A stretch of DNA of 64,000 nucleotides, taken from assembly GCA_964636545.1 (NCBI GenBank), contig CAZWSR010000003.1:6947-70946 (forward strand), given 5' to 3'. This stretch comes from Candidatus Undinarchaeota archaeon. Its GTDB lineage: Archaea; Undinarchaeota; Undinarchaeia; Undinarchaeales; UBA543. Each line of letters begins with the position of its first letter. Position 1 is the first letter of the stretch. Below, piece after piece: positions 30,503 through 59,035 of this stretch. The translations under genes were made by a program, and so were the position numbers. The notes beneath the pieces are model-generated. The model made no database searches. It was not told the origin of the DNA and worked only from the letters and a program-made list of their open reading frames with translations.

Positions 30503-30581
30503 TTTGGTTTTTGGTTAAATGTATCGGGCATCTGGCTTCGGGTATCAGGCCTGATACCTGATGCCTGTTACCTGATCCCTA
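30503..30581 (-). repeat. CAGGTAT-family heptamer hairpin between eno and rps2
   Basis: Minus strand caggtaa caggcat caggtat cagg-cctgata cccgaag ccagatg cccgata catttaa ccaaaaa; perfect 18-bp palindrome ggtatcaggcctgatacc at 30541-30558. Confidence 0.88.
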
Positions 30582-31800
30582 TTTTGCCCATCCCAGCTTC
30601 TGTTTTTTCAGCGATTCTGAGTAGCTCATCGAGCTTTGCAATTCGTTCTCCCCCAGTCACGCCGCACTTAATGATAGGTGCGGAAAAGCCAACAGCAATA
30701 TGAGATATTGATGTATCTGTAGTCTCACCAGAACGATGTGACACCACAGGAGTGTACATATTCTCAATAGCCGTGTTTATAACCTTTTCTGTATCTGTGA
30801 GTGAGCCGATTTGATTTGGTTTTACAATTATAGAATTAGCTGATTTTTGCTTTATGCACTTGTCAAAAATCTTCGGATTGGTGACAGTTAGGTCATCTGC
30901 AACAACCAAACATTGATTTCCAACCCTTTTTGTAAGCTCAGCAAATGACTTAAAATCGGCCTCATGAAACGGATCTTCAAGATAGAAAATTCCAAAATGG
31001 TCAACAAGTTGTTCCATATAATCAATTTGTTCTGCAGGAGTTTTCTTAACTCCATTCTTGTAAACATAAGCTTCTTTGTCAGCATTCCAGAACTGAGTTG
31101 CTGCTAAATCCAGACCAGATTTGACTGTAAAACCAACTTGGTCAGATGTCTTAATACAAGCTGCAACCAAGATTTCAAGAGCTTCATCATTATCCATTTG
31201 CGGAGCCCAGCCACCTTCATCATTTCTACCTTTTGTGAAATTCGGAATTTTTGATTTAATAAGCTCAAGCACGATCTTGTGTGCGGTTTCATTCGCCATT
31301 ACTGCATCATGAATATTATCTGCACCAGTTGGGATGACAAGATATTCCTGGAAATCAGGACTTCCTTTTCCAGCATGCGCACCCCCGCCAATCACATTTC
31401 CAAGCGGAAACGGCATTGTGTAATTATTTGTTTTTGTGAAAATTTCAAAAAAATCTTTTCCATCAACTTCTGCTTTCAGCTTGCCAACAGCCATTGACAA
31501 CGCAACTGCAAGATTGCCCCCAAGCAATGAAAAACCAGGATCAAGCTCCTTGAATTTTGAATCAACTTGATGAAAATCAGCAGAAATATTTACAAACTTT
31601 TCAGCATAAGAATCATTGAATCGCTTAACTGCTGCTGCAACTCCTTGCTTTGGAAATGCAATAACTTCATTGGATCCAGTTGATGCACCAGAAGGCGCTG
31701 CCGCGATTGCACTTTGTTTTCCAGCCCAGACCTCAACTTCAATTGTTGGGTTTCCACGTGAATCAATTATTTCTCTTGCATGTAATTTTGTAATAGGCAT
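30568..31800 (-). CDS. eno: Enolase
   Basis: IIDSRGNPTIEV, PSGASTG, NVIGGGAH, KPNQIG and SHRSGET. Start at MPITKL (31800), with a TATA box about 25 nt upstream. Confidence 0.95.
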   Translation of the reverse strand: MPITKLHAREIIDSRGNPTIEVEVWAGKQSAIAAAPSGASTGSNEVIAFPKQGVAAAVKRFNDSYAEKFVNISADFHQVDSKFKELDPGFSLLGGNLAVALSMAVGKLKAEVDGKDFFEIFTKTNNYTMPFPLGNVIGGGAHAGKGSPDFQEYLVIPTGADNIHDAVMANETAHKIVLELIKSKIPNFTKGRNDEGGWAPQMDNDEALEILVAACIKTSDQVGFTVKSGLDLAATQFWNADKEAYVYKNGVKKTPAEQIDYMEQLVDHFGIFYLEDPFHEADFKSFAELTKRVGNQCLVVADDLTVTNPKIFDKCIKQKSANSIIVKPNQIGSLTDTEKVINTAIENMYTPVVSHRSGETTDTSISHIAVGFSAPIIKCGVTGGERIAKLDELLRIAEKTEAGMGKIGIR

Positions 31801-31856
31801 GAAAAAGAGTAGGCTGTTCGTTATATAAATACGTTGAGTTCGTTGATATTTTTTCA

Positions 31857-31923
31857 GGGGCTCCGGGGCGCAGGGGCTCAGTAGATCCGTACGGCGCTCC
31901 GGCTCCACGGATTCACGGCTCCC
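31857..31923. repeat. GC-rich octamer hairpin between the divergent eno and psmB promoters
   Basis: ggggctcc ggggcgca ggggctca gtagatccgta cggcgctc cggctcca cggattca cggctccc. Confidence 0.88.
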
Positions 31924-32018
31924 ATTATCAAATTTAACCAATAATAAAACTTATAAACCCAACAATCAACACTTAACCAAGCAATTTTAAGAGTTTTAAA
32001 ACTTTAAAGGTGAGAATA

Positions 32019-32654
32019 TTGGAAAAAAAAGATATGGAAAAATATTTGAAAGGGACAACCACTGTTGGTTTTACATGCACTGACGGTGTCGTAATGGCTT
32101 CTGATAGCAGAGCAACAATGGGCTTCATGATAGCTGACAAAAATGCCCGAAAAATATATGCAATTGATGACAAGATCGCAATCACAACAGCTGGAATGGT
32201 TGGCGACAACCAAATGCTTGTTCGATTAATGAAAGCACAACTTGCGCTTTACAAAATGGATGGAAAACCAATAACAGTAAAGGCAGCAACCACATTACTT
32301 TCAAATGTACTGCACCAAAATCGCTTTTACCCAATGTATGTACAGAACATAATTGGCGGATTTGATACAAAAGGAAGAATATTTGAATTGGATATGGCAG
32401 GCGGAATGGGTGAGAAAGATATATCATCCACAGGATCCGGCTCCCCAACAGCATACGGTGTTCTTGAAAATGATTGGAAAAAAGGAATGACTGTAGACGA
32501 AGGTGTTCACCTTGGTGTAAAATGTATCCACACTGCTTTGGAACGAGATGCAGCAACAGGAAACAATGTTCGCGTAATGAAAATAACTGCAAACGGAGTT
32601 GAAGAAGTTTCAAAAGAAACAATTGCACAAATAAGAACTGAGTTAGCAAAATAA
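32019..32654 (+). CDS. psmB: Proteasome beta subunit
   Basis: Propeptide followed by KG|TTTVG, ASDSRAT and GSGS. Start at TTG 32019 (GGTGA SD) or ATG 32034. Confidence 0.95.
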   Translation: MEKKDMEKYLKGTTTVGFTCTDGVVMASDSRATMGFMIADKNARKIYAIDDKIAITTAGMVGDNQMLVRLMKAQLALYKMDGKPITVKAATTLLSNVLHQNRFYPMYVQNIIGGFDTKGRIFELDMAGGMGEKDISSTGSGSPTAYGVLENDWKKGMTVDEGVHLGVKCIHTALERDAATGNNVRVMKITANGVEEVSKETIAQIRTELAK

Positions 32655-32657
32655 AGA

Positions 32658-32722
32658 ATCGTTTTTAGTCTTTCGTTATTCGTTTTTAGTAAACGAACAA
32701 CGAGAAACCAATAACGAATAAC
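32658..32722. repeat. AT-rich heptamer hairpin between psmB and fttA
   Basis: atcgttt ttagtct ttcgtta ttcgttt ttagta aacgaac aacgaga aaccaat aacgaat. Confidence 0.8.
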
Positions 32723-32763
32723 AAGATAATAATCACGTTTTCAAAATTTAGGAGAATAATATA

Positions 32764-34674: not shown

Positions 34675-34718
34675 AAGCTCACCGCTAACCCCTAATTCCC
34701 GAAAAATTTAATCCAATT

Positions 34719-35162
34719 TTAAGCTAATGGATTTGTTTCTGCTGGCTCTTCAGGTAGTGGACTCAAATCAGATGGCCCAACACTAACAGGTTCCATTCCA
34801 GCTCGTGCAATTCTGACACTTGGAGGTGTAATAACAATTATATCCTCTTTAATGCCTGCAATATCGCCGCCAATGGCTGAAGTTGTTCGCTGAATACGCT
34901 TCAAAGCTCGTTTTAGTTCCATTTTCTCTTGAACTAAAGAAGGCTTGACCTTAAGCACAACAACATTAGAACGGTCACGAAGATGTGCAAGGATACCCTC
35001 TACATCAGTGAACTCGTTTAGTGAAAGAACACGCAAAACATGTGCAGAATCTGCTTTTCCACCTTTCCAGTCTAGCTCGAGATACTTTGGCTCGCGCGAA
35101 ACATGAGTAGGTGCTCTGGCGCCTACACTTGGTTTAAGTATTTTATCTAGTAATCTCCTCAT
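34719..35162 (-). CDS. sepF: Archaeal SepF (DUF552)
   Basis: ELKRALKRIQ...GGDIAGIKEDIIVITP pattern. Confidence 0.85.
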   Translation of the reverse strand: MRRLLDKILKPSVGARAPTHVSREPKYLELDWKGGKADSAHVLRVLSLNEFTDVEGILAHLRDRSNVVVLKVKPSLVQEKMELKRALKRIQRTTSAIGGDIAGIKEDIIVITPPSVRIARAGMEPVSVGPSDLSPLPEEPAETNPLA

Positions 35163-35227
35163 TATAACTCCCCTCGGACTTAATGTGTTAGCGTGTTTGT
35201 TTATATATTTTTCTCCAGTGAACTATG

Positions 35228-36475: not shown

Positions 36476-36844
36476 TTATTCAGACTTTTTTTCTGGTGCG
36501 CCAGGAAGAATTCCCTGTAACCTGTCCTGAATGGACTTCAAGTTGTTTGTAAGCTTTTCTTCTTGGGAAGAAAGTGACTTCATACGAACTTCAAGAGAAT
36601 CAACTTTTTCCTTTAATTCACCAGAGATGGTTGCCTTGTCAGTTTTGATAAGGATTTGTCCAACAATCTTGTGAACTTCGGATTTATCATCTGTTTTCTC
36701 AAGTTCTTCCAGTGCAGATTGTGCTTCCTTTAATTGGATTTCTGCTTGGTATTTCTGAGACATAATCATTCGAGCCTGTTGCTGGCCTTCTTGAAATTCT
36801 CTTAGTTTGTCCTGAATATCAGGAGACATTTTTTCTTCAGTCAT
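36476..36844 (-). CDS. pfdB: Prefoldin beta subunit
   Basis: Coiled coil with a central hairpin (VHKIVGQILIK); operon context. Confidence 0.92.
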   Translation of the reverse strand: MTEEKMSPDIQDKLREFQEGQQQARMIMSQKYQAEIQLKEAQSALEELEKTDDKSEVHKIVGQILIKTDKATISGELKEKVDSLEVRMKSLSSQEEKLTNNLKSIQDRLQGILPGAPEKKSE

Positions 36845-36930
36845 TTTTGTTTATCCTCTTGGTTAAGGTTTCAGCCCTCGGCCATCAGCCATCAGTTCCT
36901 GAGGGCTGACTGCTGACTGCTGATACCTGT
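36845..36930 (-). repeat. CAGGTAT/TCAGC-family heptamer hairpin between pcc1 and pfdB
   Basis: Minus strand acaggtatcagcagtcagcagtcagccctcaggaactgatggctgatggccgagggctgaaaccttaaccaagagga; near-identical to 51929-52013. Confidence 0.9.
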
Positions 36931-37146
36931 TTATTCCAACCCCTCCGCAACTTGAACAAGCCGCAGGTAAGAGTTAAGCGCTGCTTTGAGCGCAGCAACA
37001 TCAGTTGCCTCTATGTTGAACACGAGTTTGTTACCAGATGCAGATGCTTTTACTGAAAAGCGATTAGCATCTTCCATATCTGGTTTTAGTGAGTCAATTA
37101 CTCTCTGTGGATTTTCTGTTTCGATATTAACCTGTGCAGTAATCAT
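36931..37146 (-). CDS. pcc1: KEOPS complex subunit Pcc1
   Basis: SLKPD and DVAALKAALNSYLRLV; start at MITAQ. Confidence 0.88.
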   Translation of the reverse strand: MITAQVNIETENPQRVIDSLKPDMEDANRFSVKASASGNKLVFNIEATDVAALKAALNSYLRLVQVAEGLE

Positions 37147-37291: not shown

Positions 37292-37576
37292 TTATTTTTC
37301 CTCCTGTTTAGATTCAGATTCATAATCTTCCACAGCAACTACTTGAGATTTTTTCTCTGTTTTAGTTAATGGAGCATAAGCGCCACCAGCGTATTTTGCA
37401 CCACATTTTGAGCATTCCCAAACACCAGTAGCAGTACGTTTAGCAGATTTCATTTGGCATTTAAGGCAAGGATGCTTGGCTTTTGAAACAGCTTCAATTG
37501 CCTTTACCTTGTTCCTGATTTTTCTACCGTACCGTGGGCCGAATCTACCTGTACTTCCTACTTTTTTTGTTGCCAT
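37292..37576 (-). CDS. rpl37ae: 50S ribosomal protein L37Ae (eL43)
   Basis: [12 protein letters not shown]...WECSKCG and AGGAY. Confidence 0.95.
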
Positions 37577-37666
37577 CTTTTGTTTTTCCTTTTGGTTAAG
37601 GTGTCAGCCCTCTGCCCTCTGCCTTCAGGTCCTGAAGGCTGAATGCTGACTGCTGATACCTGTTTA
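37577..37666 (-). repeat. CAGGTAT/TCAGC-family heptamer hairpin between rrp42 and rpl37ae
   Basis: Core gccttcagg-t-cctgaaggc at 37620-37638; ends ccttaaccaaagga...ATG. Confidence 0.9.
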
Positions 37667-38479
37667 TCACATCTTCCCAGCACTTGGCTGAGCTTCTTGT
37701 GGACTGGTTTTTGCTTGTGCAAGAGCATCTTGCACAATTTTCCGCTTTTCAGCAGCACGAGTTATTGCAATGTCAACACATTTCATTATTTCTTCTATTG
37801 ACCATGCACCACCAAGTGCCTTTTGCATTGCACAGACATTGTTATTCTCCTCAACAGTTATTGTTAAGCGAGCGTCTGCGACATTCTCTTCTGCCACTGT
37901 TGGGTCAAGCAATATGTCACTATCCACCTTTATAAAAGTATTGGATATTGGCATTTTGGTAATCGGCAAAGGGCCGAAATCCTCAATCACAGTGTTGTGA
38001 AGAGCTGCAACTGCTGCTAAAGAAGCTGCATCCATGTAATTTCCGCTGTTGTCTAGGACATAAGCATCAATACACACAATTCTTGTTTCTTCTCCAGGAG
38101 TTATGCAAAGCTTTTCAAGGTCAATACATTTTGACTCGCGGATTCCGCGGTCAACGACTCTTGCAAGTTCAATTGCTACCTCACTTGGAGGTCCTGGCTG
38201 GAATTTAGGATCAGCTGATGCATTAAGCTCAGCATTGGTTGTCAAAACACCCATGTTTGGTGAGTCAGGGTATGGAACTGCTTTTCCAATTTTGATTCCT
38301 GAAGCAACCATTGTCTGGCCAAGCCAGCAGGTTGCAGATCCTTCAGCACGTTTGTAGTCGCCGATAGTCAGTTTAATTGGCCTAAATTGGTCAAAAGCCC
38401 GACCATCTGCACGCTTACCGCTTTTAATTAGCTCACGTGTTGATTTCTTTTCCAGATTTGGAATTATTGTTACACTCAT
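37667..38479 (-). CDS. rrp42: Exosome complex component Rrp42
   Basis: [24 protein letters not shown] and LDPTVAEE. Confidence 0.94.
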
Positions 38480-43177: not shown

Positions 43178-43246
43178 CTCGTTTTTAGTTTTTGGTTCTT
43201 CGTTTTTCGTTACCAATAACTAATTACTAATAACGAAAGACGAATT
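43178..43246. repeat. AT-rich heptamer hairpin in the rpl15e leader
   Basis: ctcgttt ttagttt ttggttc ttcgttt ttcgtta ccaat aactaat tactaat aacgaaa gacgaat; same family as 32658-32722. Confidence 0.8.
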
Positions 43247-43346
43247 ATCTATTTTCGCTCAAGCCAAAGCCATCAACGCAACGGACGTATCCGCAAATAG
43301 ACTTGATTTTATCAAACAGGTGGTTTAAAAAGGTTTGTATTGATTA

Positions 43347-43780: not shown

Positions 43781-43812
43781 GACCTACTACCTCCTACCTA
43801 CTACCCACTACC
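43781..43812. repeat. GGTAGTA-family heptamer arm immediately downstream of the rhomboid gene
   Basis: tactacc tcctacc tactacc cactacc. Confidence 0.8.
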
Positions 43813-43838
43813 TTATTAAAAAACTCCGCCTAATAACT

Positions 43839-46876: not shown

Positions 46877-46919
46877 AGTTAGAATAAGGATATTGCACTA
46901 TTTAAGTGTTTTTTTTAGG

Positions 46920-46980
46920 AATTTAGATTTTAGAATTTGGAATTTAGAATCAATTCTAAACCCCAAAATCAAAACTCCAA
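46920..46980. repeat. AT-rich heptamer hairpin downstream of the DUF2085 gene
   Basis: aatttag attttag aatttgg aatttag aatcaatt ctaaacc ccaaaat caaaact. Confidence 0.7.
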
Positions 46981-46987
46981 GCTCTAT

Positions 46988-49806: not shown

Positions 49807-50576
49807 TTACAGTTGTCTTAATTGAACCACATTATTCTGGGAATATTGGCTCAGTTTGCAGAGCTATGAAGAATTTTGGATTTAGTAAATTGGAATTTGT
49901 TAATCCAAAAAAGATTACAGCTGAAGCTGGGATGATGGCTGTTCATGCAAAAGATGTTCTGGAAAAAGCAAAAACAGTAACTAAGTTTGATTTTAAGAAA
50001 TATGATTATGTAATTGGAACAAGTTGCAAAGCAACAGAAAAGGATGATTATTTTTTGAGAATGACAACGCCACTGAAAGAGTTGAAAAAGAAATTTGGGG
50101 CACCGGGGCGCGGGGGCGCCGCTGGACAGAAACGGCGCTCCGGATCCACGGCGCTCCGGCCAACTGGAAAGATAGCAATTGTGTTTGGTCCAGAACCTTC
50201 TGGCTTGTCAAATGAATTTCTTGAGAAATGTGATATCATCACAACAATCCCAACTTCTCCAAAATACAGAAGCATGAATTTGTCACACGCTGTTGCAGTA
50301 GTGCTGTACGAACTTGCAGGTAGTGGGCAGGGGGCAGTGAGCAGTGGGGCAACAGTGCGATTAGCAAATTCAAAGGAGAAATCACTAATCAATACCAATA
50401 TGAAAAGTATTGTTAAGAAAAGTGGTTATCCTGCTGAAAAACACAAAGTATTTAACAGCATGTTCCAGAAGCTCCTAGGGAGAGCAGTAGTAACTGGGAG
50501 AGAAGCAAACACATTAATAGGCGTTCTCAAACGTATAAAGAAGGCAACAGGCGTCAGGGATCAGGCATCAGGATAA
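49803..50576 (+). CDS. trmJ: TrmJ/TrmH-family SPOUT tRNA methyltransferase carrying repeat-derived in-frame insertions
   Basis: VLIEPHYSGNIGSVCRAMKNFG, VFGPEPSGLSNE and SMNLSHAV; ATGA overlap with suhB. Confidence 0.92.
   Translation: MITVVLIEPHYSGNIGSVCRAMKNFGFSKLEFVNPKKITAEAGMMAVHAKDVLEKAKTVTKFDFKKYDYVIGTSCKATEKDDYFLRMTTPLKELKKKFGAPGRGGAAGQKRRSGSTALRPTGKIAIVFGPEPSGLSNEFLEKCDIITTIPTSPKYRSMNLSHAVAVVLYELAGSGQGAVSSGATVRLANSKEKSLINTNMKSIVKKSGYPAEKHKVFNSMFQKLLGRAVVTGREANTLIGVLKRIKKATGVRDQASG
50097..50164. repeat. GC-rich octamer hairpin, in-frame inside trmJ (GAPGRGGAAGQKRRSGSTALRPT)
   Basis: ggggcacc ggggcgcg ggggcgcc gctggacagaaa cggcgctc cggatcca cggcgctc cggccaac. Confidence 0.9.
50319..50346. 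repeat. GGTAGTA-family heptamer arm, in-frame in the trmJ linker (GSGQGAVSS)
   Basis: ggtagtg ggcaggg ggcagtg agcagtg. Confidence 0.8.
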
Positions 50577-50616
50577 CAAAACCTGATACCAGAAACCCGA
50601 TACCTGATACCTGTAA
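50548..50616 (+). repeat. CAGGTAT-family heptamer hairpin encoding the trmJ C-terminus and stop
   Basis: caggcgt cagggat caggcat caggata acaaaa cctgata ccagaaa cccgata cctgata cctgtaa. Confidence 0.88.
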
Positions 50617-50635
50617 AAAAGAGGTAAATAAAAAA

Positions 50636-51928
50636 ATGTCATTACTTATGGGCGGCGGCGGATCAACAGTTCAGACAATGATAAACTGGGGTATAATGCT
50701 TTTTATCTTCATGTTTATTTTGCCTAAATTGTACTTTTACCAGATATTTTCAAAACTGGAACTAAGTGCTAGGAAACTTGAGGCACTTTCTGATAAAGCT
50801 CAGAAACAATTGCTCAAAGATACAAAAAAATGGAGCAATAGCCAGAGTGGGCCAAAGGGAATTCTCAAAGGCTTTATTGACTTTTTCATGATACCCCCAA
50901 TTAATCTTGATCCATTTGGAATTGTTAAGAAACTGGGTCACATGATAGACCACACAGAAAACAGGTTCAAAGAAACTGCAAAACAAATGGTGCCAAAAGC
51001 AAATAGTGAGCAGATAATGAATGTGAATATGGGATTGCAAGCAGCAACCATGCTCCACCAGCTCTCAAAAATAGTTAGACACTATGTTGAAATGGCAAAG
51101 AAATTCAAGAACTTGCAAATCGCAATGATAATTCAGATGCAGATGCCAATACTTGAGAAAATCGCAGAAGCACAATATGATGGAATGGAAACTTTCCTCA
51201 AAGGAGAAGCAATTGGAGATGCAGCAGGACCGCTAACAATCGCCAGTTTGCTTGACAAAGAAGGAAAAGAAATTGCACAAGATGTTGTTGCAGTAACTGA
51301 AAAGAAATGGGGCAGAAACATAACATTCCTTAAAGCAAGTGGACCAGGTGGACGCCTTGGAAAACTTGGAGAAGCTGTTGCAAAAGCTTGCAAAGGCAGG
51401 AAAATAACAAAAATAATCACAATTGACGCTGCTCAGAAGCTTGAAGGAGAGAAAACAGGCAGTGTTGCAGAAGGAGTAGGTGTTGCAATGGGTGGAGCGG
51501 GAGTACAGAGATCGCAAATTGAAGCAACTGCAGTTACTTTAGGTGTTCCAGTTGAAGCAGTTGCAATAAAAATGAGTCCTTTCCAGGCAATTAAGCCAAT
51601 GACAATTAATGTATTGAAAGCAATTGACAAGGCAACTGGATTACTTAGAATGAGAGTAGAAGCCACACCGAAAGGTTCAAATATAGTAGTGATTGGTGTA
51701 GGTAACACTTGTGGTATTCCTAACACAAACAAAAACCTTAAAAGCGTTGAGGAAGCCATAAAGAAAGCCGCTAGGAAGAAAAAAGCAGAAGAACAGAAGA
51801 AAATGAAGAAAGGCCTGTTCAAGAGAAAGAAAAAACAAGGCGACTATGACGATGATGATGTGCCAGCTACTGGTTCAATGTCAAAACTTGGGATGTTCAT
51901 GAATTTCATGTATTCCAGAATAAGATAA
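50636..51928 (+). CDS. DUF1512 family protein
   Basis: N-terminal TM; GDAAGP, IITIDAAQKLEGEKTGSVAEGVGVAMGG and IGVGNTCG. Confidence 0.88.
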   Translation: MSLLMGGGGSTVQTMINWGIMLFIFMFILPKLYFYQIFSKLELSARKLEALSDKAQKQLLKDTKKWSNSQSGPKGILKGFIDFFMIPPINLDPFGIVKKLGHMIDHTENRFKETAKQMVPKANSEQIMNVNMGLQAATMLHQLSKIVRHYVEMAKKFKNLQIAMIIQMQMPILEKIAEAQYDGMETFLKGEAIGDAAGPLTIASLLDKEGKEIAQDVVAVTEKKWGRNITFLKASGPGGRLGKLGEAVAKACKGRKITKIITIDAAQKLEGEKTGSVAEGVGVAMGGAGVQRSQIEATAVTLGVPVEAVAIKMSPFQAIKPMTINVLKAIDKATGLLRMRVEATPKGSNIVVIGVGNTCGIPNTNKNLKSVEEAIKKAARKKKAEEQKKMKKGLFKRKKKQGDYDDDDVPATGSMSKLGMFMNFMYSRIR

Positions 51929-52013
51929 GAGGCATCAGGTGTCAGCAGTCAGCCATCAGGACCTGATGGCTGAAGGCCGAGGGCTGAAACCTTAACCAAG
52001 AGGACAAATAAAA
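51929..52013 (+). repeat. CAGGTAT/TCAGC-family heptamer hairpin upstream of uL16
   Basis: Perfect 12-bp arms tcagccatcagg-a-cctgatggctga at 51949-51973; ends ccttaaccaagagga...ATG. Confidence 0.9.
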
Positions 52014-52544
52014 ATGGGTGAACGAAGAGGAGGAATTTACGCAAGGTTCGATTCAAGGCCGAACTGTAGAAAGAGTGAGCGAAAGCCTCGAAAAGGATAT
52101 GTAAAAGGAGTTCCAGGACTACGAATTCACCACTTCCACACAGGAAACAGGAAAAGCAAATTTGATATTGAACTTTCACTTGCACCAGAGAATGATGTTC
52201 AGATAAAGCACACAGCTCTGGAAGCAGCTCGTATTAGCGCTGGAAAAACACTTGCAACCAAACTTGGCGAGCAGAATTTTCATTTACTTATTAGAAAGTA
52301 CCCACACCACATTTTGAGGGAAAACTCAATGGCTACTGGTGCTGGTGCAGACCGATTTTCAAGTGGTATGAGCAAATCTTTTGGTAGACCTATTGGAATG
52401 GCAGCCCGTGTTAGACGCGGAGAGAAGATTATGAGCTTGTTTGTTCCAAAAGGCAGTGAAGTTGTTGCAAAAGATGCACTACGAAGAGCAAATATGAAAT
52501 TCCCAGCAAGATGCAGTACCACTATTGAGAAGGTATTGGAATAA
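52014..52544 (+). CDS. rpl10e: 50S ribosomal protein L10e/L16 (uL16)
   Basis: ALEAARI, YPHHILREN...GAGADR and GMSKSFGRPIG. Confidence 0.95.
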   Translation: MGERRGGIYARFDSRPNCRKSERKPRKGYVKGVPGLRIHHFHTGNRKSKFDIELSLAPENDVQIKHTALEAARISAGKTLATKLGEQNFHLLIRKYPHHILRENSMATGAGADRFSSGMSKSFGRPIGMAARVRRGEKIMSLFVPKGSEVVAKDALRRANMKFPARCSTTIEKVLE

Positions 52545-52590: not shown

Positions 52591-53451
52591 ATGACACCAT
52601 CCTGGAGAAGAAAATTTGAGGAATTTAATAACGAGAAGGTAGTTGATACGATTCTTGAAAAACTTGAGACTAACATAAGAGACAAGGACGAAAAAAAGAG
52701 GGAAGTTGAAATAGACTGGGATCATGACGGAGATACAGATGCATGGGAAAGAAATGAACGGACCATTGCAGAATTTGTTAACAAAGAAAAATTTATTTCA
52801 AAACTTGTGAAAGGAGTAAAACCAATAAGAGTGGATGGAAATGAAAGATTTTATGGATTATTTGCACAAGAAATAGATGGCTGGAAAGTTCTACTAGAAC
52901 CATGGACACAAGTGGACAAAGGAAAGGTAATTAGTGCAGAGTATGAGAGTGTTACGATAATTATAGCAAAGATAGACAACAAAAGAAATTTGGAATACAA
53001 GGCTGATCGAATCTATGGAGAACATTTAGCAGTACAACATGAAGATTGCTCATCTTTTTTAGGTGCAAAATTTGACTTGAAATTCAAAACATCAAAGAAT
53101 CCAAAGGGCCTGATTCTTGGAGAAGATTTGTATGATTTCGCAGGAGAACTTATTGAATTATCAAAAAGTATGGATTGTGGAATAGGAGTAAAAAACATTA
53201 AGCAGAAAAAGAACGGAGAGTTGAAATTCCATGGAGGAATACATATCTACCCTCGTTTTCAAAGCTCATTTAAGAACAATAAAATGAAGATACAAATGGG
53301 TTATGCTTTATTTTATAGAGAAGGATATGAGTTATGGGGCAACAGAATAGGATTGAACAAAACAGATGATAAGGCAAATGGAGTTGAACTAAAGATCCCA
53401 TATACAACAGGAGATCTTGATGATCTTGGATTTACAGACGGAGAGTCGTGA
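52591..53451 (+). CDS. Hypothetical protein
   Basis: 286 aa ORF with a TTTATA box upstream; no recognised motif. Confidence 0.65.
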   Translation: MTPSWRRKFEEFNNEKVVDTILEKLETNIRDKDEKKREVEIDWDHDGDTDAWERNERTIAEFVNKEKFISKLVKGVKPIRVDGNERFYGLFAQEIDGWKVLLEPWTQVDKGKVISAEYESVTIIIAKIDNKRNLEYKADRIYGEHLAVQHEDCSSFLGAKFDLKFKTSKNPKGLILGEDLYDFAGELIELSKSMDCGIGVKNIKQKKNGELKFHGGIHIYPRFQSSFKNNKMKIQMGYALFYREGYELWGNRIGLNKTDDKANGVELKIPYTTGDLDDLGFTDGES

Positions 53452-53518: not shown

Positions 53519-56266
53519 ATGGATTATATTGTATGGTTCAAAGATTTGAATAAAAAAAGCATCAGCGTAGCTGGAGGTAAAGGAGCAAACCTTGGTGAGC
53601 TGACTGCTGCTGGAATGCCAGTGCCTGAAGGTTTTATTTTAACTGCACAAACCTACAAGAAATTTATTGACGAGGCAGATCTGAATGAAGACATAAACGA
53701 AATTCTAAAGGACTTGGATGTTGAGGATAATGACAAACTGCAGAAGGCATCAAAAGATATTGGAAGTATGATAACTGGTTCTCCAATGCCAGATGAAGTG
53801 CAGGAAGCAATCAAAACCGAGTATGAAAAAATTGAATCAACTGATAATATTATAATTGCAGGAACAGGGCAAGAACCAGGAGAATTTGTTGCAGTGCGCT
53901 CTTCAGCAACTGCAGAGGACCTGCCAGGCGCAAGTTTCGCAGGCCAACAAGCAACTTTCTTGAATGTGAAAGGTGGAACCAACCTAATCCACGCAGTAAA
54001 AGAGTGCTGGGCTTCATTGTTTACAGCAAGAGCAATTTATTATCGTGTGAAAAAAGGTTTTGAGCATGAGAAAGTTCTGATTTCAGTTATTGTTCAGAAA
54101 ATGATTGACTCAGACAAGTCAGGAGTTATGTTTACTGTAAATCCAGTTGATAATGACCGCTCAAAAATTTCAATTGACTCTGCTTGGGGACTTGGAGAAG
54201 CAATTGTTGGCGGACAAGTTACTCCAGATCACTTCCTTGTTGATAAAGAAACACAAGAAATTACAGAAAGTAAAGTTTCTAAAAAGGACTTCATGTACAC
54301 CCGAGATATTGCAGAAGGAAACACAACAAAAGTGACTTTGACTGACGAAACCGCGAATAAGAGCTCAGTTACTGATGAGGAAGTTAAAACTCTTGCTGAG
54401 TTTGGGAAGAAGATTGAGGCGCATTATGATTATCCACAAGATATTGAATGGGCAATTGATAGTGGTGAATTTTTCATTTTGCAATCAAGGCCAGTTACGA
54501 CTTTAGGGGATGAAGATGGAAAGGCAGTAGGTAGTGGGCAGAAGGCAGTAGCTGAAAAACCTCAAACCACTGCACCAACAGGCGATGTTTTAGTAAAAGG
54601 TTTTGGCGCAAGCCCAGGAATTGGCGGCGGAAAAGTGAAGATTGTTCACGATGCTAGTGAATTAACAAAAGTTGAAAAAGGAAATGTGCTTGTTGCTAAA
54701 ATGACTAGCCCAGATATGGTTCCAGCAATGGAAAGAGCAAGTGCAATTGTCACAAATGAAGGTGGAGTAACTTGTCATGCTGCAATTGTTTCACGAGAAC
54801 TTGGAATACCATGTATTGTTGGAAGTGAAAATGCAACTGAAGTTTTGAAAGATGATCAAGAAGTCACAGTTGATGCAAAAGCAGGAGTTGTTTACCCTGG
54901 AATAAAAGCAAATGCAAGCACAGAACCAATAAAACTTGAAACAGCTGACAAAATCCCAACAAAAACAAAGATTTATGTTAATTTAGGAATTCCAAGCAAG
55001 GCAAAAGAGGTTGCTGCACTGCCAGTTGACGGTGTTGGTTTGATGCGAGAAGAATTTTTAATTGCTTCGCAGATTGGTGAGCACCCACTTGCAATGATTG
55101 AACGTGGAGCATCGCAGGAGTTTATTGACAAATTAGCTGACGGAATTCAGCAAGTTGCTGAAGCATTTAATCCACGACCAGTTGTTCTGCGACTAAGTGA
55201 TTTGAAAACAAATGAGTACCATGACTTGAAAGGTGGAGATAAATTTGAAGATCCTGAAGATAATCCAATGATTGGATGGCGCGGATGCTCAAGATACACT
55301 TCTGACAAATACAAAGAGGCATTCAAGCTTGAATTGAAAGCTGTGAAGAAGGTGCGTGATGCTGGTTTCAAGAATATTGTAATAATGTTACCGTTTGTTA
55401 GAAAACTTGATGATGTTACACGAGTTACAGAACTGATGAAAGAAGAAGGACTTGAGCGCGGCGAGGACTTGAAATTATGGATAATGGCAGAAGTTCCTTC
55501 AGTTGTTATTCTTGCTGACGAATTTGCAAAACTTGTTGATGGATTTTCAATTGGCAGTAATGATTTAACTCAATTGACAATGGGAGCAGACCGCGATTCT
55601 GAATTGCTTGAGAAACTTGGTTATTTTGATGAGCGAGATGAAGCAGTTATGCGATCAATTGCACGTTTGATAAAATTAGGAAATAATGCAGGAATTACTG
55701 TTTCAATTTGCGGACAAGCACCTAGCACAAAGCCAGAGATTATCAAAGTTTTAGTTGAGAAAGGAATTACTTCAATAAGTGCAAATCCAGATGTTGCTGT
55801 GCAGACAATGAAAATGGTTGCTCAGGAAGAGAGTAAGATTACTTTAGCTAAGGATGAAATTGAATCAGGGGCTCCGGGGCGCAGTGAAACCGGGGCGACG
55901 GAGCGGAGTATAGACGTAGAGACGAAAACAGAACCTCAAACTCCAAACCCACAACCCCAAACCACTGAACCAATTGAAATACAAACTCCAAGCCATGTAG
56001 AACCGAAACCACCTAGCGCACCAGCCCCTATGCCACCTAAAGAAGAATCAGAGAAAAAGCAAGAGAACCTACCCCATTTTTCACCTCCAGCACAACTTCC
56101 AAAAAAAGATGATGACGAAGACGACGAGGATGACGATGATAATGGATTTATTGAGAAAGTAGAAGATGTTGTTGAAGATATTGGAGATAAAGTTGAAGAA
56201 ATTGGAGAAAAAGTAACTGGATTTTTCAGGCATGATAAGGACGAGGAAGGGAAGGAAGAAGAATAG
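53519..56266 (+). CDS. ppsA: Phosphoenolpyruvate synthase with a long low-complexity C-terminal extension
   Basis: GGKGANLGEL, AVRSSATAEDLPGASFAGQQ, GGVTCHAAIVSRELG, NPMIGWRG and SIGSNDLTQ. Confidence 0.96.
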   Translation: MDYIVWFKDLNKKSISVAGGKGANLGELTAAGMPVPEGFILTAQTYKKFIDEADLNEDINEILKDLDVEDNDKLQKASKDIGSMITGSPMPDEVQEAIKTEYEKIESTDNIIIAGTGQEPGEFVAVRSSATAEDLPGASFAGQQATFLNVKGGTNLIHAVKECWASLFTARAIYYRVKKGFEHEKVLISVIVQKMIDSDKSGVMFTVNPVDNDRSKISIDSAWGLGEAIVGGQVTPDHFLVDKETQEITESKVSKKDFMYTRDIAEGNTTKVTLTDETANKSSVTDEEVKTLAEFGKKIEAHYDYPQDIEWAIDSGEFFILQSRPVTTLGDEDGKAVGSGQKAVAEKPQTTAPTGDVLVKGFGASPGIGGGKVKIVHDASELTKVEKGNVLVAKMTSPDMVPAMERASAIVTNEGGVTCHAAIVSRELGIPCIVGSENATEVLKDDQEVTVDAKAGVVYPGIKANASTEPIKLETADKIPTKTKIYVNLGIPSKAKEVAALPVDGVGLMREEFLIASQIGEHPLAMIERGASQEFIDKLADGIQQVAEAFNPRPVVLRLSDLKTNEYHDLKGGDKFEDPEDNPMIGWRGCSRYTSDKYKEAFKLELKAVKKVRDAGFKNIVIMLPFVRKLDDVTRVTELMKEEGLERGEDLKLWIMAEVPSVVILADEFAKLVDGFSIGSNDLTQLTMGADRDSELLEKLGYFDERDEAVMRSIARLIKLGNNAGITVSICGQAPSTKPEIIKVLVEKGITSISANPDVAVQTMKMVAQEESKITLAKDEIESGAPGRSETGATERSIDVETKTEPQTPNPQPQTTEPIEIQTPSHVEPKPPSAPAPMPPKEESEKKQENLPHFSPPAQLPKKDDDEDDEDDDDNGFIEKVEDVVEDIGDKVEEIGEKVTGFFRHDKDEEGKEEE
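54523..54550. repeat. GGTAGTA-family heptamer arm, in-frame in the ppsA inter-domain linker (KAVGSGQKAV)
   Basis: ggcagta ggtagtg ggcagaa ggcagta. Confidence 0.8.
55868..55907. repeat. GC-rich octamer arm, in-frame in the ppsA tail (GAPGRSETGATER)
   Basis: ggggctcc ggggcgca gtgaaacc ggggcgac ggagcgga. Confidence 0.8.
55934..55968. repeat. Heptamer arm, in-frame in the ppsA tail (PQTPNPQPQT)
   Basis: cctcaaa ctccaaa cccacaa ccccaaa ccactga. Confidence 0.65.
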
Positions 56267-56302
56267 CTAACATTTTTATACCATAACTTGAAGGAATTTA
56301 TT

Positions 56303-57286
56303 ATGCAAGACAAGATTTTACAAGCAGTTCAGGAAAAAGGAGCAAAGAAGATAGGACTGCAGGTTCCAGAAGGCCTGAAGAACAAGGCAGTTGAGTGGGC
56401 ACAAGAAATTGAGAAAACTGGAGCAAAAGTTTATATTTTCGCTGATCCATGCTATGGAGCTTGTGATTTATGGGATTTTGAAGCAGACCGACTTGGTTGC
56501 GATTTGCTAATTCATGTTGGGCATTCTACAATTGGAATTGAAGAAAAAATTCCAACAGTTTACATTGAATATGAATCTGACTTGGATATTTCAAAAATTG
56601 TTGAGAAAGCTGGACAGGAAATTGAAGAAAAAAAGATTGTATTAACCACTACACTGCAACACATCAAACAACTTGATAAAATTAAAGAAATTCTGGAAAA
56701 ATCTGGAAAAGAAGTTGTTATTGGAAAAGCAGGAACTCGTTCAAAATATGATGGACAGATTCTTGGATGCGACCCAGGAGTTATTGCTGATGCAGATGCA
56801 TATCTTTACATTGGTACTGGAAACTTCCACGCAATTGAAATTGCACTTGCAACAGGCAAAAAAGTTTACATTGCTGATCCTGAGCTTGACCAAATTAGGA
56901 TTTTAGATGATGAAAAAGAGGAATTCTTAAGAAAACGATTTGCAAAAATTGAGAATGTGAAGGGGGCGCCGGGGCGCCGGGGCGCCGGGGCTCAGAAGTT
57001 CGGTATTCTGGTCAGCATAAAACCAGGTCAGAACCGAATGGACTTGGCTGAAAAACTGAAAAAGATGTGTGAAGAGAAAGGAAAGCAAGCAGAAATTCTT
57101 GTGATGGACTACATTAGCCCAGAAAAACTACTTGGATTTGGATTTGATGCATATGTAAACACAGCTTGTCCGCGAATTGCTATTGATGATTCTGGAAATT
57201 ATGACAAGCCGCTACTAACTCCGCAGGAATTAGAGATTGTTCTGGGAATTAGAGAATGGGAAAAATATAAATTAGATAGATTCTAA
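56303..57286 (+). CDS. dph2: Diphthamide biosynthesis radical-SAM enzyme Dph2
   Basis: Three Fe-S cysteines in DPCYGACD, ILGCD and TACPR; LQVPEGLK. Confidence 0.94.
   Translation: MQDKILQAVQEKGAKKIGLQVPEGLKNKAVEWAQEIEKTGAKVYIFADPCYGACDLWDFEADRLGCDLLIHVGHSTIGIEEKIPTVYIEYESDLDISKIVEKAGQEIEEKKIVLTTTLQHIKQLDKIKEILEKSGKEVVIGKAGTRSKYDGQILGCDPGVIADADAYLYIGTGNFHAIEIALATGKKVYIADPELDQIRILDDEKEEFLRKRFAKIENVKGAPGRRGAGAQKFGILVSIKPGQNRMDLAEKLKKMCEEKGKQAEILVMDYISPEKLLGFGFDAYVNTACPRIAIDDSGNYDKPLLTPQELEIVLGIREWEKYKLDRF
56963..56994. repeat. GC-rich octamer array, in-frame in dph2 (GAPGRRGAGAQ)
   Basis: ggggcgcc x3 perfect, followed by ggggctca. Confidence 0.9.
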
Positions 57287-57295
57287 TAATAAGAT

Positions 57296-58000
57296 ATGAG
57301 TTTTGAAACTGAAAACGAAAAACTAAAACAGAATGAAGTTATTACATATGAAAGTAAGGTGAATATAAAGAATATTAAAGATGACTACGAGAAACTGATA
57401 ATCGATATTGGCGCAATTGGAGATATTGAAAAAGAAATCGGGTTTGGAAAAATACTTCTACCATGTGTTGAGCTGTCAAAGAACAAGAAATGGTTTGTAA
57501 CAGCTATTGATCTACCATTTATAACTGTAGAAGATATGATTACAGTTGAGGAATTCTGCGAAAATGATCTCCAAAAACTGAAGAGGAAGAATTTAGGTAT
57601 GAGAATTCTGGAAACAAATTACAAGACACTTCCGTTTGACACTTCAATTTTTGACAGGGTTGAGATGCATTATGTTCTTACAATTTGCGACAAAAACGCA
57701 AAGAATATTCTAAGTGAAGCTGACAGAGTCCTGAAACCAGGTGGAGTCATGATGATAAGTGGCGAGTATGGTTCACTAGTGAACTTGGATAGAAAGCAGA
57801 AAAAACTTCTACATAAGTTCATACAAAAGAAAAAATATACAAAAATAAAACCTGTGACAAAACAAGTGATGGTTAGTAACTTTGGTGAGGAGTTTGGAGA
57901 TGAGAAAGAACATCGTTTATACATGCTAAGAAAACCAGTTGAAAAAGATAAGAGAGGAATACTCAATAGTTTGAAAAAGTGGATAACTAATTGGATGTGA
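57296..58000 (+). CDS. Class I SAM-methyltransferase-like protein (divergent)
   Basis: LIIDIG and LPFDTSIFDRV...EADRVLKPGG. Confidence 0.65.
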   Translation: MSFETENEKLKQNEVITYESKVNIKNIKDDYEKLIIDIGAIGDIEKEIGFGKILLPCVELSKNKKWFVTAIDLPFITVEDMITVEEFCENDLQKLKRKNLGMRILETNYKTLPFDTSIFDRVEMHYVLTICDKNAKNILSEADRVLKPGGVMMISGEYGSLVNLDRKQKKLLHKFIQKKKYTKIKPVTKQVMVSNFGEEFGDEKEHRLYMLRKPVEKDKRGILNSLKKWITNWM

Positions 58001-58030
58001 AAATTATAAATTGGACCGATTTTAAGCCAA

Positions 58031-58062
58031 TTACCTACCACCCACTACCCACTACCTGAACC
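58031..58062. repeat. GGTAGTA-family heptamer arm upstream of the rpoL promoter
   Basis: ttacc taccacc cactacc cactacc. Confidence 0.78.
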
Positions 58063-58111
58063 AATTGGATAAACTTATAAACACCCAAAAACTCAGAATA
58101 GAGGTAATAAA

Positions 58112-58384
58112 ATGGAACTAAAAATTTTAAAAGATGAAAAAGACCTTCTTGAGGTTGAACTTGTTGGAGAAACACACACTCTAACAAATGTACTGAAAGA
58201 TATTTGTAATGAAGATAAGAGTATTGACAGTGCATCATACAGAGTGGATCACCCAATGACATCCAACCCAATTCTAGTTATTAGAACAAAAACAGGTTCA
58301 CCAAAAACTGCAGTGAAGAAAGCAGCAGCAGCACTAGAAAAAATCGCAGCTGACTTTGGAAGCAAGTTCAAAAAATCTATATAA
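58112..58384 (+). CDS. rpoL: RNA polymerase subunit L (Rpo11)
   Basis: GETHTLTNVL and SYRVDHP. Confidence 0.94.
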   Translation: MELKILKDEKDLLEVELVGETHTLTNVLKDICNEDKSIDSASYRVDHPMTSNPILVIRTKTGSPKTAVKKAAAALEKIAADFGSKFKKSI

Positions 58385-58424
58385 ACTGTAATAACTAATT
58401 CTTACAAAGCTGGGGAAGATTATT

Positions 58425-58952
58425 TTGAAAATAAAACTTAGCAAAAAGACAAAGAGCTTTTTAGAAACGCTTGCATATATTTTCATAGGTTACCTAATCG
58501 CTGTTGGAGCAAACAAAGGAATGTCAATGGCAATGCACACAGACTACCCAGTTGTTGCTGTTGTTTCAAGTAGTATGGAACATGACGATCCCATTAGTTA
58601 TGAAACATGGTTTATTGATAGAAAATATGATGAGGCAGATAGAGAAGAATGGGATTTTGGAAGAGGAATCAACAAAGGAGATATAGTTTTTGTTAATGGG
58701 GTTCCATTAGAAGAGATTGGTAGCGGAGATGTAATAGTTTACAAATCAGGCAATATGGAGCCGATAATCCATAGAGTTATTGAAGTCACAGATGATGGAT
58801 TAAGAACAAAAGGTGACAATAACATGGATGTTGATCAGGATGATAGTATTCCAATTGTAACACAAGGGGCTTTGCAAGGAAGAGCAGTTTTCCGAGTTCC
58901 AATGTTAGGTTATGTTAAAATCGCGTTTATGAAAATTACAGGGAGGAGCTAG
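58425..58952 (+). CDS. sec11: Signal peptidase I (Sec11 type)
   Basis: TM helix, VVSSSME (Ser), IIHRV (His), TKGDNN and PMLGYVK; TTG start. Confidence 0.9.
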   Translation: MKIKLSKKTKSFLETLAYIFIGYLIAVGANKGMSMAMHTDYPVVAVVSSSMEHDDPISYETWFIDRKYDEADREEWDFGRGINKGDIVFVNGVPLEEIGSGDVIVYKSGNMEPIIHRVIEVTDDGLRTKGDNNMDVDQDDSIPIVTQGALQGRAVFRVPMLGYVKIAFMKITGRS

Positions 58953-58954
58953 AA

Positions 58955-59035
58955 CAGGTGTCAGGTAACAGGGATCAGGGTTCAGGATAACAGTTCCTGA
59001 TACCCGATGCCCGAACCCCGATACCTTTAACCAAA
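58955..59035 (+). repeat. CAGGTAT-family heptamer hairpin between sec11 and tfs
   Basis: caggtgt caggtaa cagggat cagggtt caggata acagtt cctgata cccgatg cccgaac cccgata cctttaa ccaaa-ATG. Confidence 0.9.

Follow-up and report, generated by a model that had tools for sequence, protein, structure and literature searches.

Hairpins built from short tandem repeats, and other small palindromes placed close to genes, have been described mainly from bacteria. In filamentous cyanobacteria, 7-bp short tandemly repeated repetitive (STRR) sequences form hairpins between the co-transcribed genes hupS and hupL, for which a role in stability or translational coupling has been proposed but not shown (PMC2670836), and Nostoc has heptamers close to its start codons and promoters throughout the genome (bioRxiv 10.1101/2022.06.06.494920). 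TAACTGA heptamers lie just upstream of start codons, including those of ribosomal-protein operons, mostly in one orientation, and their stop-codon content has been proposed as one constraint on placement that partly explains this bias (PMC4679880). Rickettsia palindromic elements (RPEs) insert in frame in Rickettsia genes (PMC10969869), and in the archaeon Methanolobus psychrophilus processing beside the ribosome-binding sites (RBSs) of ribosomal-protein genes raises stability and translation (PMC5499594). The subject of this study is a set of six hairpins, A1-A6, located between genes in a 64,000-nucleotide stretch of a contig from a Candidatus Undinarchaeota archaeon (CAZWSR010000003.1, positions 6,947 to 70,946), referred to here as the window. 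They are the archaeal counterpart of the cyanobacterial STRR hairpins and of the bacterial repetitive extragenic palindromic (REP) and RPE elements, and we favour, tentatively, the explanation that they belong to a lineage-specific family of palindromic repeats with a short period, of which they are the members residing at junctions, and that this family is generated and homogenised at the DNA level.

The kind of element is thus already known, from STRR, REP and RPE-like repeats and start-adjacent heptamers. To our knowledge, what is new is its occurrence in archaea (DPANN), the obligate palindromic form with coexisting unit types, the positional conservation combined with concerted turnover of units, a rule of polarity, and the presence of the same units in phage late operons. 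A search of the literature on Undinarchaeota or DPANN turned up no relevant report of elements of this kind. DPANN genomes are among the most streamlined, and yet around a quarter of the junctions in the window hold periodic palindromes of 40-90 nt, which sister species keep in place while rewriting their sequence.

The window has a G+C content of 38% and an archaeal informational gene content (exosome subunits, proteasome, aCPSF1/FttA, RNase J, ribosomal proteins, TFS and PCNA), and its Rrp42 is 53-70% identical to the best named relatives, proteins of 'Candidatus Undinarchaeales' metagenome-assembled genomes (MAGs). An earlier note on this DNA had placed hairpins at six junctions (upstream>downstream gene), eno>rps2, pcc1>pfdB, rrp42>rpl37ae, trmJ>DUF1512, DUF1512>uL16 and sec11>tfs; all six are present, and the flanking genes, identified by Pfam, are those named. 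The arms of every copy are tandem heptamer arrays: the 5' arm repeats NNNCAGG or NNTCAGC and the 3' arm their complements, CCTGNNN or GCTGANN, giving a consensus of an NNNCAGS array followed by an SCTGNNN array, for which the copies are called CAGS-type. Their 5' ends read (T)AAACAGGT, GAGGCATCAGG or GGATCAGG, and Tandem Repeats Finder reports period-7 or period-8 arrays in both arms of A1-A6 and in about 25 other places.

Three copies are on the minus strand. A1 (eno>rps2, 30503-30590) has its hairpin at 30525-30590, with 5' arm units GGATCAGG, TAACAGG, CATCAGG and TATCAGG and 3' arm units CCTGATA, CCCGAAG, CCAGATG and CCCGATA; the eno stop TAA (30568-30570) falls within the second 5'-arm unit, and the tail TTAACCAA (30511-30518) leads to the rps2 ATG (30500-30502) with no Shine-Dalgarno (SD) sequence. 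A2 (pcc1>pfdB, 36845-36930) follows the pcc1 stop TAA (36931-36933) with a hairpin of TCAGCAG-type units (36866-36928), the tail TTAACCAA (36859-36866), the SD GAGGA (36854-36858) and the pfdB ATG (36842-36844). In A3 (rrp42>rpl37ae, 37577-37666) two stops, TGA (37667-37669) and then TAA (37664-37666), precede the hairpin (37599-37661), which is followed by TTAACCAA (37592-37599), the SD AAGGA and the rpl37ae ATG (37574-37576). The other three are on the plus strand. A4 (trmJ (SpoU)>DUF1512, 50547-50635) has its hairpin at 50547-50614, where the 5' arm supplies the codons for the final 9 TrmJ residues and the stop TAA (50574-50576) lies in the loop; it has no TTAACCAA, and the SD GAGGT (50621-50625) and an ATG at 50636 follow. 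The stop TAA at 51926-51928 adjoins the hairpin (51929-51993) of A5 (DUF1512>uL16, 51929-52013), with TTAACCAA at 51992-51999, the SD GAGGA at 52000-52004 and the ATG at 52014. A6 (sec11-like>tfs, 58953-59035) comes after the stop TAG (58950-58952), with a hairpin of five NCAGG units (58956-59026), TTAACCAA at 59027-59034, no SD and the tfs ATG at 59036.

The predicted folds have minimum free energies (MFEs) of -24.5 to -35.5 kcal/mol and z-scores of -3.4 to -6.0 (A1 -25.5 and -3.4, A2 -33.7 and -5.2, A3 -31.6 and -6.0, A4 -24.5 and -4.3, A5 -35.5 and -5.5, A6 -34.0 and -5.6), values matched by none of 200 dinucleotide shuffles. The near-identity previously remarked on between the copies at 36845 and 51929 holds, since A2 and A5 (36836-36931 and 51927-52022) are 89% alike over 96 nt; A2 and A3 are 84% alike over 105 nt, and A6 is related in sequence to A1 in the repeat comparison. 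No CAGS-type copy beyond A1-A6 was found in the window. Some details of the earlier description need amending. Hairpins were said always to sit between a stop and the next start codon, which is so for four copies but not for A1 and A4, where the upstream stop lies in the 5' arm and the loop, respectively. SD sequences are present in four copies (GAGGA, AAGGA, GAGGT and GAGGA) rather than three, rps2 and tfs being without one. Five copies were said to end in YYTTAACCAA; TTAACCAA does lie directly 3' of the arm in five, but the bases before it in the copy at 30503 are AT.

The TTAACCAA octamer occurs 12 times in the window against 4.7 expected, and no shuffle gets to 12. As a conserved signal it was nevertheless rejected: sister lineages differ there, with TTTAAACAA, TTTCAAAAA and CTGAACCTA at the same position, and AACCAAA is a repeat unit of this genome. 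An (AACCAAA)n array at 30479-30516 runs from the A1 tail over the rps2 start codon into the first codons (MTEEPKTKEE...), and AACCAAA arrays occur elsewhere in the window at 15408-15440 and in the tail of D2, an element described below. A search with the tail pattern GGGCTGANACCTTAACCAA gave only five chance bacterial matches in a collection of genome contigs that does not include this genome, and in metagenome contigs it recovered nothing beyond the sites of A2 and A5, which lay on short contigs.

A1-A6 end 0-2 nt ahead of the SD or, where the ATG has none, 9-18 nt ahead of that ATG. Because the copies sit within operons and neither a TATA box nor a T-run was found after any of them, they must be transcribed. 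Stable hairpins directly past stop codons could be taken for transcription terminators or attenuators between genes, but this is hardly credible here, as none of the six is followed by a T-run, the 3' flank being AACCAA or the A-rich spacer, and the downstream genes have no promoter of their own. Archaeal termination, moreover, uses oligo-T and FttA rather than hairpins. An intrinsic terminator was rejected on the same flanks (TTAACCAA or A-rich, no T-run), a bulge-helix-bulge intron on the symmetric 1x1 or 2x2 internal loops, as against 3-nt bulges, and a CRISPR on the lack of a repeat-spacer array.

Comparison with relatives identifies A1-A6 as insertions. Orthologous loci were gathered through Rrp42 and DUF1512 homologs, and comprise one MAG (L010, L011 and L024; 70-75% identity), L012 (73%), L013 (62%), L021 (TrmJ 80%) and two sister lineages, L023 (the closest; TrmJ 85%) and L014 (Rrp42 76%). 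At the A1-A6 junctions the genes of L010/L011/L024, L012 and L013 overlap or are 0-29 nt apart: the spacing at eno>rps2 is 1 nt in L010 and 0 nt in L013, pcc1>pfdB has an overlap or a 5-nt spacer, rrp42>rpl37ae has a 29-nt spacer in L012 and an overlap in L010 and L013, and sec11>tfs has 1 nt in L024. The trmJ and DUF1512 genes overlap in L024 and have a 7-nt spacer in L021, and DUF1512>uL16 has 5 nt in L024 and 3 nt in L021. It is because these same junctions overlap or are short that the hairpins are read as insertions. In the hairpin-less relatives the SD (GAGGT) lies within the last codons of the upstream gene and is followed by TAA, an A-run and ATG, so that the SD, A-rich spacer and ATG are the generic initiation region of the clade and not part of a special module. 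The insertion point is immediately 5' of the SD in A2-A5, in D2 and in the X and Y copies, whilst rps2 and tfs have lost the ancestral SD and now start 18 and 9 nt past the hairpin.

The six copies belong to a much wider population of at least 20 periodic palindromes or half-palindromes in the window, of several unit types (A-F), among them GGGGCKCC octamers (B), GGTAGTAGG (C), TCGTTTTTAG (D) and TTTAGAAT (E), together with AACCAAA and TTGGTTAA arrays. Of the 49 co-directional junctions 13 contain a periodic element, as do 2 of the 8 divergent and 2 of the 7 convergent ones (17 of 64 in total), which is the same rate in each class (about 25-29%). With their several unit types the elements fill gaps of every kind. 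A seventh operon-junction hairpin, absent from the earlier note, is D1 (32659-32722, plus strand), a T/G-rich and then A/C-rich periodic hairpin of TCGTTTTTAG units that directly follows the psmB stop at psmB>fttA and is missing in L010 and L013. D2 (43181-43247, minus strand), likewise absent from that note, is a periodic hairpin with a AACCAAAAAC tail, lying between the conserved rpl15e leader and the SD GAGGA, where L010 reads ...AAATAGAGGAATTAACTAAAATG without an insert. A full C-type palindrome of GGTAGTAGG units followed by CCYACYRCC units is located between two divergent TATA boxes (26105-26173, plus strand), a B-type palindrome of GGGGCTCC octamers lies between the divergent eno and psmB promoters and is followed by TTTAACCAA and a TATA box (31854-31923, plus strand), another B-type palindrome is just past the tfs stop and ahead of the next TATA box (59363-59422, plus strand), and an E-type palindrome of TTTAGAAT units separates convergent genes (46914-46984, plus strand). 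C-type half elements are found upstream of the rpoL TATA box (58027-58068, plus strand; C-rich array only, with a GAACCAA end), upstream of the Memo-gene TATA box (29415-29452, minus strand; GAACCAATTTAACC end) and between the rhomboid stop and the next TATA box (43781-43814, minus strand; G-rich array in sense).

The repeats also invade coding sequence in frame. A GC-rich octamer palindrome of B type (50094-50167, plus strand; -39.5 kcal/mol) adds about 18 amino acids (GAPGRGGAAGQKRRSGSTALRP) to TrmJ, an insert common to L023, partial in L021 and absent in L024, and TrmJ has a second insert of 5 aa. In Dph2, a B-type array of 3.6 GGGGCGCC units (56962-56993, plus strand) encodes the 8-aa insert GAPGRRGA, present only in this genome, and a B-type element is translated in the C-terminal tail of PPDK (55865-55908, plus strand; GAPGRSETGATERS), with GAPGLRGAG at the same site in L021. 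The in-frame arrays, with Gly/Ala/Pro/Arg-rich products, are these three and those at 15483-15510 and 50319-50348, namely GC-rich octamers of GGGGCGCC type plus one of GGCAGGG type, hosted by TrmJ (two), Dph2, the PPDK tail and the open reading frame (ORF) 15141-15821; alignments of TrmJ, Dph2 and PPDK show the inserts to be absent from at least some orthologs. In being in-frame palindromes in conserved genes that orthologs lack, the GGGGCGCC elements of TrmJ, Dph2 and PPDK resemble RPEs. RPEs, however, are about 100-150 bp long, bacterial and without short tandem units, and the six CAGS copies are not translatable, because their 3' arm has TGA in every frame.

STRR sequences are a close match, being likewise 7-bp tandem units dispersed intergenically whose complementary arrays form hairpins between co-transcribed genes. 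A1-A6 have the tandem arrays (7-8 nt), the dispersed, multi-copy and mainly intergenic distribution (17/64 junctions) and the complementary arms, but neither the canonical unit sequences, the units here being CAGS, GGGGCKCC, GGTAGTAGG and others, nor a heterocystous-cyanobacterial host. In contrast to STRR sequences, the repeats of the window belong to a DPANN archaeon and are as a rule palindromic; they combine several unit types, 8-mers among them, include copies that are translated in frame, and are conserved in position between sister species while units turn over.

This last feature was seen in both sister lineages. L023 has hairpins at trmJ>DUF1512, at DUF1512>uL16 (5229-5312), after tfs and inside trmJ, built of TAGGCGT units at the two junctions and of GCTAGGG units after tfs, the site of 59363-59422 in the window, and it carries a CTATGCCC array upstream of rpoL at the site of 58027-58068. 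L014 has a hairpin of TTAGGGTC units at rrp42>rpl37ae (3887-3952). L021 is without both of the junction hairpins that its locus covers, and has periodic palindromes in one divergent and one convergent gap and a C-rich array upstream of the PPDK promoter. Of the detection methods, a gapless hairpin finder misses half of the copies owing to internal loops, and an 80-nt MFE scan is too noisy across differing GC. The trmJ>DUF1512 hairpins of the window and L023 are the sole alignable orthologous pair; 4 of their 17 base pairs have changed on both sides and none is broken, three of the four compensatory changes being the same C-G to U-A in successive units. Orthologous arms in the sister lineages are only 50-71% alike, and at the sites other than this pair 50-68%, about the level of unrelated low-complexity sequence, with 72-81% complementarity within a hairpin, and the two L023 junction hairpins have in common a nested sub-hairpin with compensatory changes of its own. 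That paralogues within a genome are more alike than orthologues implies concerted evolution or repeated overwriting. At A4 (50610-50625), and likewise in L023 (3930-3950), the end of the 3' arm (UACCU and UGCCU) could also pair with the SD AGGUA 9 nt downstream, in competition with the outermost hairpin stem.

Contigs that are 99.8-100% identical to the window occur in several metagenome assemblies and in two NCBI MAGs. Several assemblies of the species break exactly at hairpins (window positions 51956/51984, 36834 and 37568, at the ends of L030, L004, L020 and L032), and as independent assemblies end there, the repeats evidently fragment MAGs of this lineage.

The orientation of the copies, which the earlier note took as strict and as a sign of mRNA-level function, proved less informative. 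The core is nearly its own reverse complement and carries no orientation itself, and the strictness of the orientation is for the most part a consequence of this core and of the flanking genes. An array followed by its inverted complement reads nearly alike on both strands, so that what sets the orientation is confined to the tail and SD, the stop and start on either side, and the mismatches; in repeat family D4, A5 (plus strand) aligns in the same sense as A2 and A3, though they are on opposite strands. The antisense fold is at least as stable in all six copies (-30.7 kcal/mol for A1 and -32.2 kcal/mol for A4) and in 12 of the 13 elements examined. When the 5' arm is set against the reverse complement of the 3' arm, the sense strand has 35 A·C and 21 G·U oppositions, typically CAGG facing CCCG. 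A selected sense RNA helix would normally have more G·U than A·C, and there is no sign of sense-RNA selection here; the excess of A·C lends no support to an RNA role, conceivable as that still is, and fits either maintenance at the DNA level or mild selection weakening the mRNA hairpin. As 49 of the 64 junctions in the window are co-directional, finding all six copies at such junctions has p of about 0.2 if junctions are counted and about 0.05 if intergenic lengths are used, and the positional regularity of the six is statistically weak. The boundary between minus-strand copies (all to its left) and plus-strand copies (all to its right) is at about 45 kb, where gene direction turns along with the cumulative GC skew; because the strand of the copies switches where gene direction flips, transcription and replication direction are confounded.

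A selected mRNA module, for which the copies would have been recruited or be maintained, is the main alternative and the explanation closest to that put forward in the earlier note; we regard it as possible but somewhat less likely. On this view the module would be an insulated initiation region (a standby site), or else a processing or stability boundary, made up of hairpin, single-stranded C/A-rich tail, SD and A-rich spacer, and it would free a highly expressed cistron downstream (rps2, rpl37ae, uL16, prefoldin, TFS) from coupling to a weakly expressed one upstream. It could do so by blocking the 3'-5' exosome upstream, by shielding the downstream part from RNase J or aCPSF, or through reinitiation across the helix base. 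The hairpins are intra-operon with no promoter or T-run after them, their tails end 0-2 nt ahead of the SD, the two genes that lost theirs start close behind the helix, sister lineages keep both position and pairing, the phage analogues described below have the same layout, and genes for the exosome, RNase J and aCPSF1/FttA are in the window. Intra-operon processing near the RBSs of ribosomal-protein genes raises stability and translation in archaea (PMC5499594), and the sites in M. psychrophilus likewise lie just upstream of such RBSs in polycistronic mRNAs; they are, however, recognised from RNA 5' ends that were mapped and from a single-stranded, U-rich motif, whereas the feature here is a repeated hairpin in the DNA sequence. 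Against such a module stand the lack of sense bias in stability and wobble pairs, the same architecture in non-transcribed gaps and coding sequence, and near relatives that have the same genes without hairpins at the same junctions, and neither a 7-8 nt period nor homogenisation within a genome is needed for an RNA helix. The functional inference of the earlier note is thus only partly supported, and the stop-hairpin-start regularity is better explained by repeat origin and tolerance than by mRNA function, though an mRNA role (RBS insulation, stability or processing) is possible. If the hairpins are functional, they would be a portable way of splitting ancestral translationally coupled operons upstream of ribosomal-protein genes.

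One regularity does hold across unit types. The G/T-rich arm is 5' and the C/A-rich arm 3' in 18 of 21 elements of the archaeal set (window, L014, L021 and L023), and the mirror arrangement, with a C/A-rich array 5' and a G/T-rich array 3', is found in none of these 21 nor in the phage sets; because the arrangement is its own reverse complement, the polarity holds on both strands. In CAGS types a stop-free TCAG array comes first, followed by a CTGA array with TGA in all three frames, as a period of 7 or 8 visits every frame, and only stop-free units (B type and the G arm of C type) occur inside genes. This polarity rule is a testable regularity without explanation in any current model. TAACTGA repeats also have a CTGA core; most sets lie in 'forward' orientation a few nucleotides upstream of starts, often with no SD, and some overlap the end of the upstream ORF while a few are translated in reverse orientation; they differ in being direct repeats without an inverted arm (one inverted in 170), in being bacterial (Beggiatoaceae, cyanobacteria and Bacteroidetes) and in having a single conserved heptamer (PMC4679880).

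The constant 5' position of the G/T-rich arm is also among the reasons to consider periodic binding arrays, in which the units (NNNCAGG, TAGGCGT, TTAGGGTC, GGTAGTAGG and others) would be lineage-specific protein sites or G-tract structures acting on DNA (in chromatin, replication or recombination) or on RNA, with the complementary arm secondary. The strict 7-8 nt period and the half elements without a complementary arm would suit this, as would units that are species-specific yet common across the loci of one genome and the greater regularity of the 5' arm, whose units keep CAGG intact in 4/4, 4/4 and 5/5 cases, against 1/4, 3/5 and 1/4 for CCTG in the 3' arm. Such arrays are nonetheless quite unlikely, as no candidate protein was found, several unrelated unit types coexist in one genome, and the T/A-rich types D and E have no G tracts.

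Mobility driven by a transposase encoded elsewhere is another explanation, with A1-A6 as a non-autonomous transposon (a MITE, short for miniature inverted-repeat transposable element, or a REPIN) whose orientation stems from strand-specific insertion of the IS200/IS605 kind tied to replication. Near-identical copies 15 kb apart, assemblies that break at elements, and copies all directed away from the turn of gene direction and GC skew near 45 kb agree with this, as do short direct repeats that flank A2 (ATAAAC...ATAAAC) and A5 (AAGAGG...AAGAGG). Whereas MITEs have terminal inverted repeats, each element here is a palindrome over its whole length. Mobility of this kind is very unlikely all the same: the flanking ATAAAC and AAGAGG coincide with the generic SD/A-rich motif and vary in length and register between copies. 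No transposase was found in the 64 kb or in the fetched loci of relatives, including the RAYT (IS200/IS605-type) transposase, and the sequence covered showed no insertion sequence that could be a parent; many unit types would require many transposases; and sister lineages re-use orthologous sites. REP elements and their composites (BIMEs, REPINs) are, like these, imperfect intergenic palindromes that are multi-copy, species-specific and co-transcribed in operons, and they stabilise upstream mRNA segments. The elements here differ in having arms of 7-8-nt tandem units and lengths of 60-75 nt, with no GTAG or CGTC head such as stands at the 5' end of the 20-40-nt REP palindrome, and in lying immediately 5' of the SD of the next gene rather than mainly at 3' ends.

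For the favoured explanation, a DNA-level repeat family, we infer a mechanism in which slippage lengthens the arrays and the inverted arm is produced, and later corrected, through template switching. Quasi-palindromes are corrected by template switching, and archaeal family-B polymerases reportedly can extend short tandem repeats of palindromic sequence in vitro through a hairpin-coil mechanism (work attributed to Ogata and Miura). Whole stop-to-start cassettes may then be copied among junctions by short-homology recombination at generic flanks, these being SD/A-run/ATG for A and D types and BRE (the archaeal TFB recognition element)/TATA for C type, and spread through such flanks would account for the association of unit type with context as well as for the fixed orientation. 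Survivors in operons would be limited to copies whose 5' edge terminates the upstream ORF and which keep an open, unstructured C/A-rich tail before the start, with or without an SD. As the insert probably folds on itself, stop and start would stay spatially adjacent with the SD free, so that an insert of 60-90 nt could be tolerated where the ancestral genes overlapped, and as a by-product the hairpin may serve as an exonuclease barrier or RBS insulator. On this explanation, the strict orientation and position would follow from origin and purifying selection and not from a dedicated mRNA function.

Several points weigh against this. The genome is a streamlined one, in which two sister lineages keep hairpins at four or five of the orthologous positions, and selection on structure would equally predict the compensatory pairing in the sister hairpins. 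A and D types occur only beside initiation regions, three of them before ribosomal-protein genes. Neither a transposase, in the 64-kb window and the fetched loci, nor a recombination intermediate was obtained, and the copy mechanism proposed is one that we infer. Across same-species contigs of several samples there was no unit-number polymorphism or indel in the hairpins, which indicates that the arrays are stable on short timescales. If the repeats are selfish or mutational, they provide a clean archaeal case of REP/STRR/RPE-like dynamics, with concerted evolution, in-frame invasion and contig breaks, and a caution against annotating 'regulatory hairpins'.

The recurrence of units and layout in phages also hints at a shared function and counts against a purely repeat-based origin. 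A scan of viral contigs with TCAGCAGTCAGCNNTCAGS returned 90 stretches, as against 5 for a composition-matched scrambled heptamer pattern. At 40 of 112 viral sites at least three SCTGA units lie just downstream, with none of opposite polarity, and a scan for 3' arms of CCTGATACC type added 9 hairpins of the same polarity, the CCCGA variant among them, and none of the opposite. The contigs are mostly those of high-GC (0.45-0.66) tailed phages, and the downstream genes are head-closure, tape-measure and other tail genes. In these phages the stop typically ends 1-8 nt before the hairpin and the ATG comes 3-10 nt after, often with no SD; junction classes based on ORFs are noisy for high-GC phages, and were used for stop and start offsets only. 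The phage TCAGC/GGTATCAGG palindromes therefore resemble the archaeal hairpins in units, in the array-inverted array form, in polarity (40:0 and 9:0) and in the stop-hairpin-start order, and differ in lying on high-GC contigs, in having no TTAACCAA tail and in many copies being without any SD. Neither the layout nor the units themselves are thus confined to this archaeon.

We know of no description of TCAGC/GGTATCAGG heptamer palindromes in tailed phages. It is conceivable, though unlikely, that stop-palindrome-start cassettes are a cross-domain intercistronic device, common to a DPANN archaeon and tailed phages of high-GC bacteria, for ribosome termination-reinitiation or shunting across the helix base, for RBS insulation or as processing boundaries, in which case the 7-8 nt period would be selected since it places stops in three frames. 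If the hairpins are functional, the recurrence of units and polarity in phages would point to a general, undescribed intercistronic mechanism. Phage loci L054, L056, L048, L093, L090, L060, L147, L141, L172 and others, mostly of 0.5-0.66 G+C, contain many stop-palindrome-ATG junctions of TCAGC or GGTATCAGG units; some 34-kb phage contigs have 12 matches, and L099 has a pure (CAGCAGT)x17 array adjoining an ATG.

Other features of the window were noted alongside the repeats. The structured leader upstream of rpl15e (43249-43300, minus strand; CTATTTGCGGATACGTCCGTTGCGTTGATGGCTTTGGCTTGAGCGAAAATAG), next to D2, is conserved in the 70%-identity relative L010 and may be a ribosomal-protein leader or autoregulatory element. 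A motif of two hairpins, AATCAGGGCTTCGC(C)GAAG(G)CGAANGCCCTC and a second stem-loop, adjoins tRNA-Ala at 15876-15935 (minus strand), and occurs also at L010 1645-1720 (the same as L024 5650-5730) and at L023 12315-12385, where it occupies the sec11>tfs junction, the site of A6 in the window. A comparison with Rfam gave two tRNAs only at gathering level, and no match at E<=1 around the GGGCTTCGCC motif, and the two-hairpin motif may represent either a small RNA that has not been described or a further family of repeats. The convergent intergenic region at 20600-20933 (334 nt) contains several strong hairpins (e.g., AGCAGGGTCCCACCC...GGGGGCCCTGCT) and three TTGGTTAA units, and may hold a hidden unannotated RNA or small gene. 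Between uL16 and PPDK, L023 has an ORF with a LAGLIDADG domain (6100-7185) and the window an unrelated-looking ORF of 286 aa with no Pfam match (52591-53451), whilst the interval is empty of ORFs in L021 and L024. Downstream of PCNA, a gene pair of DUF7557 and a ParE-like toxin (61166-61661) is probably a toxin-antitoxin module.

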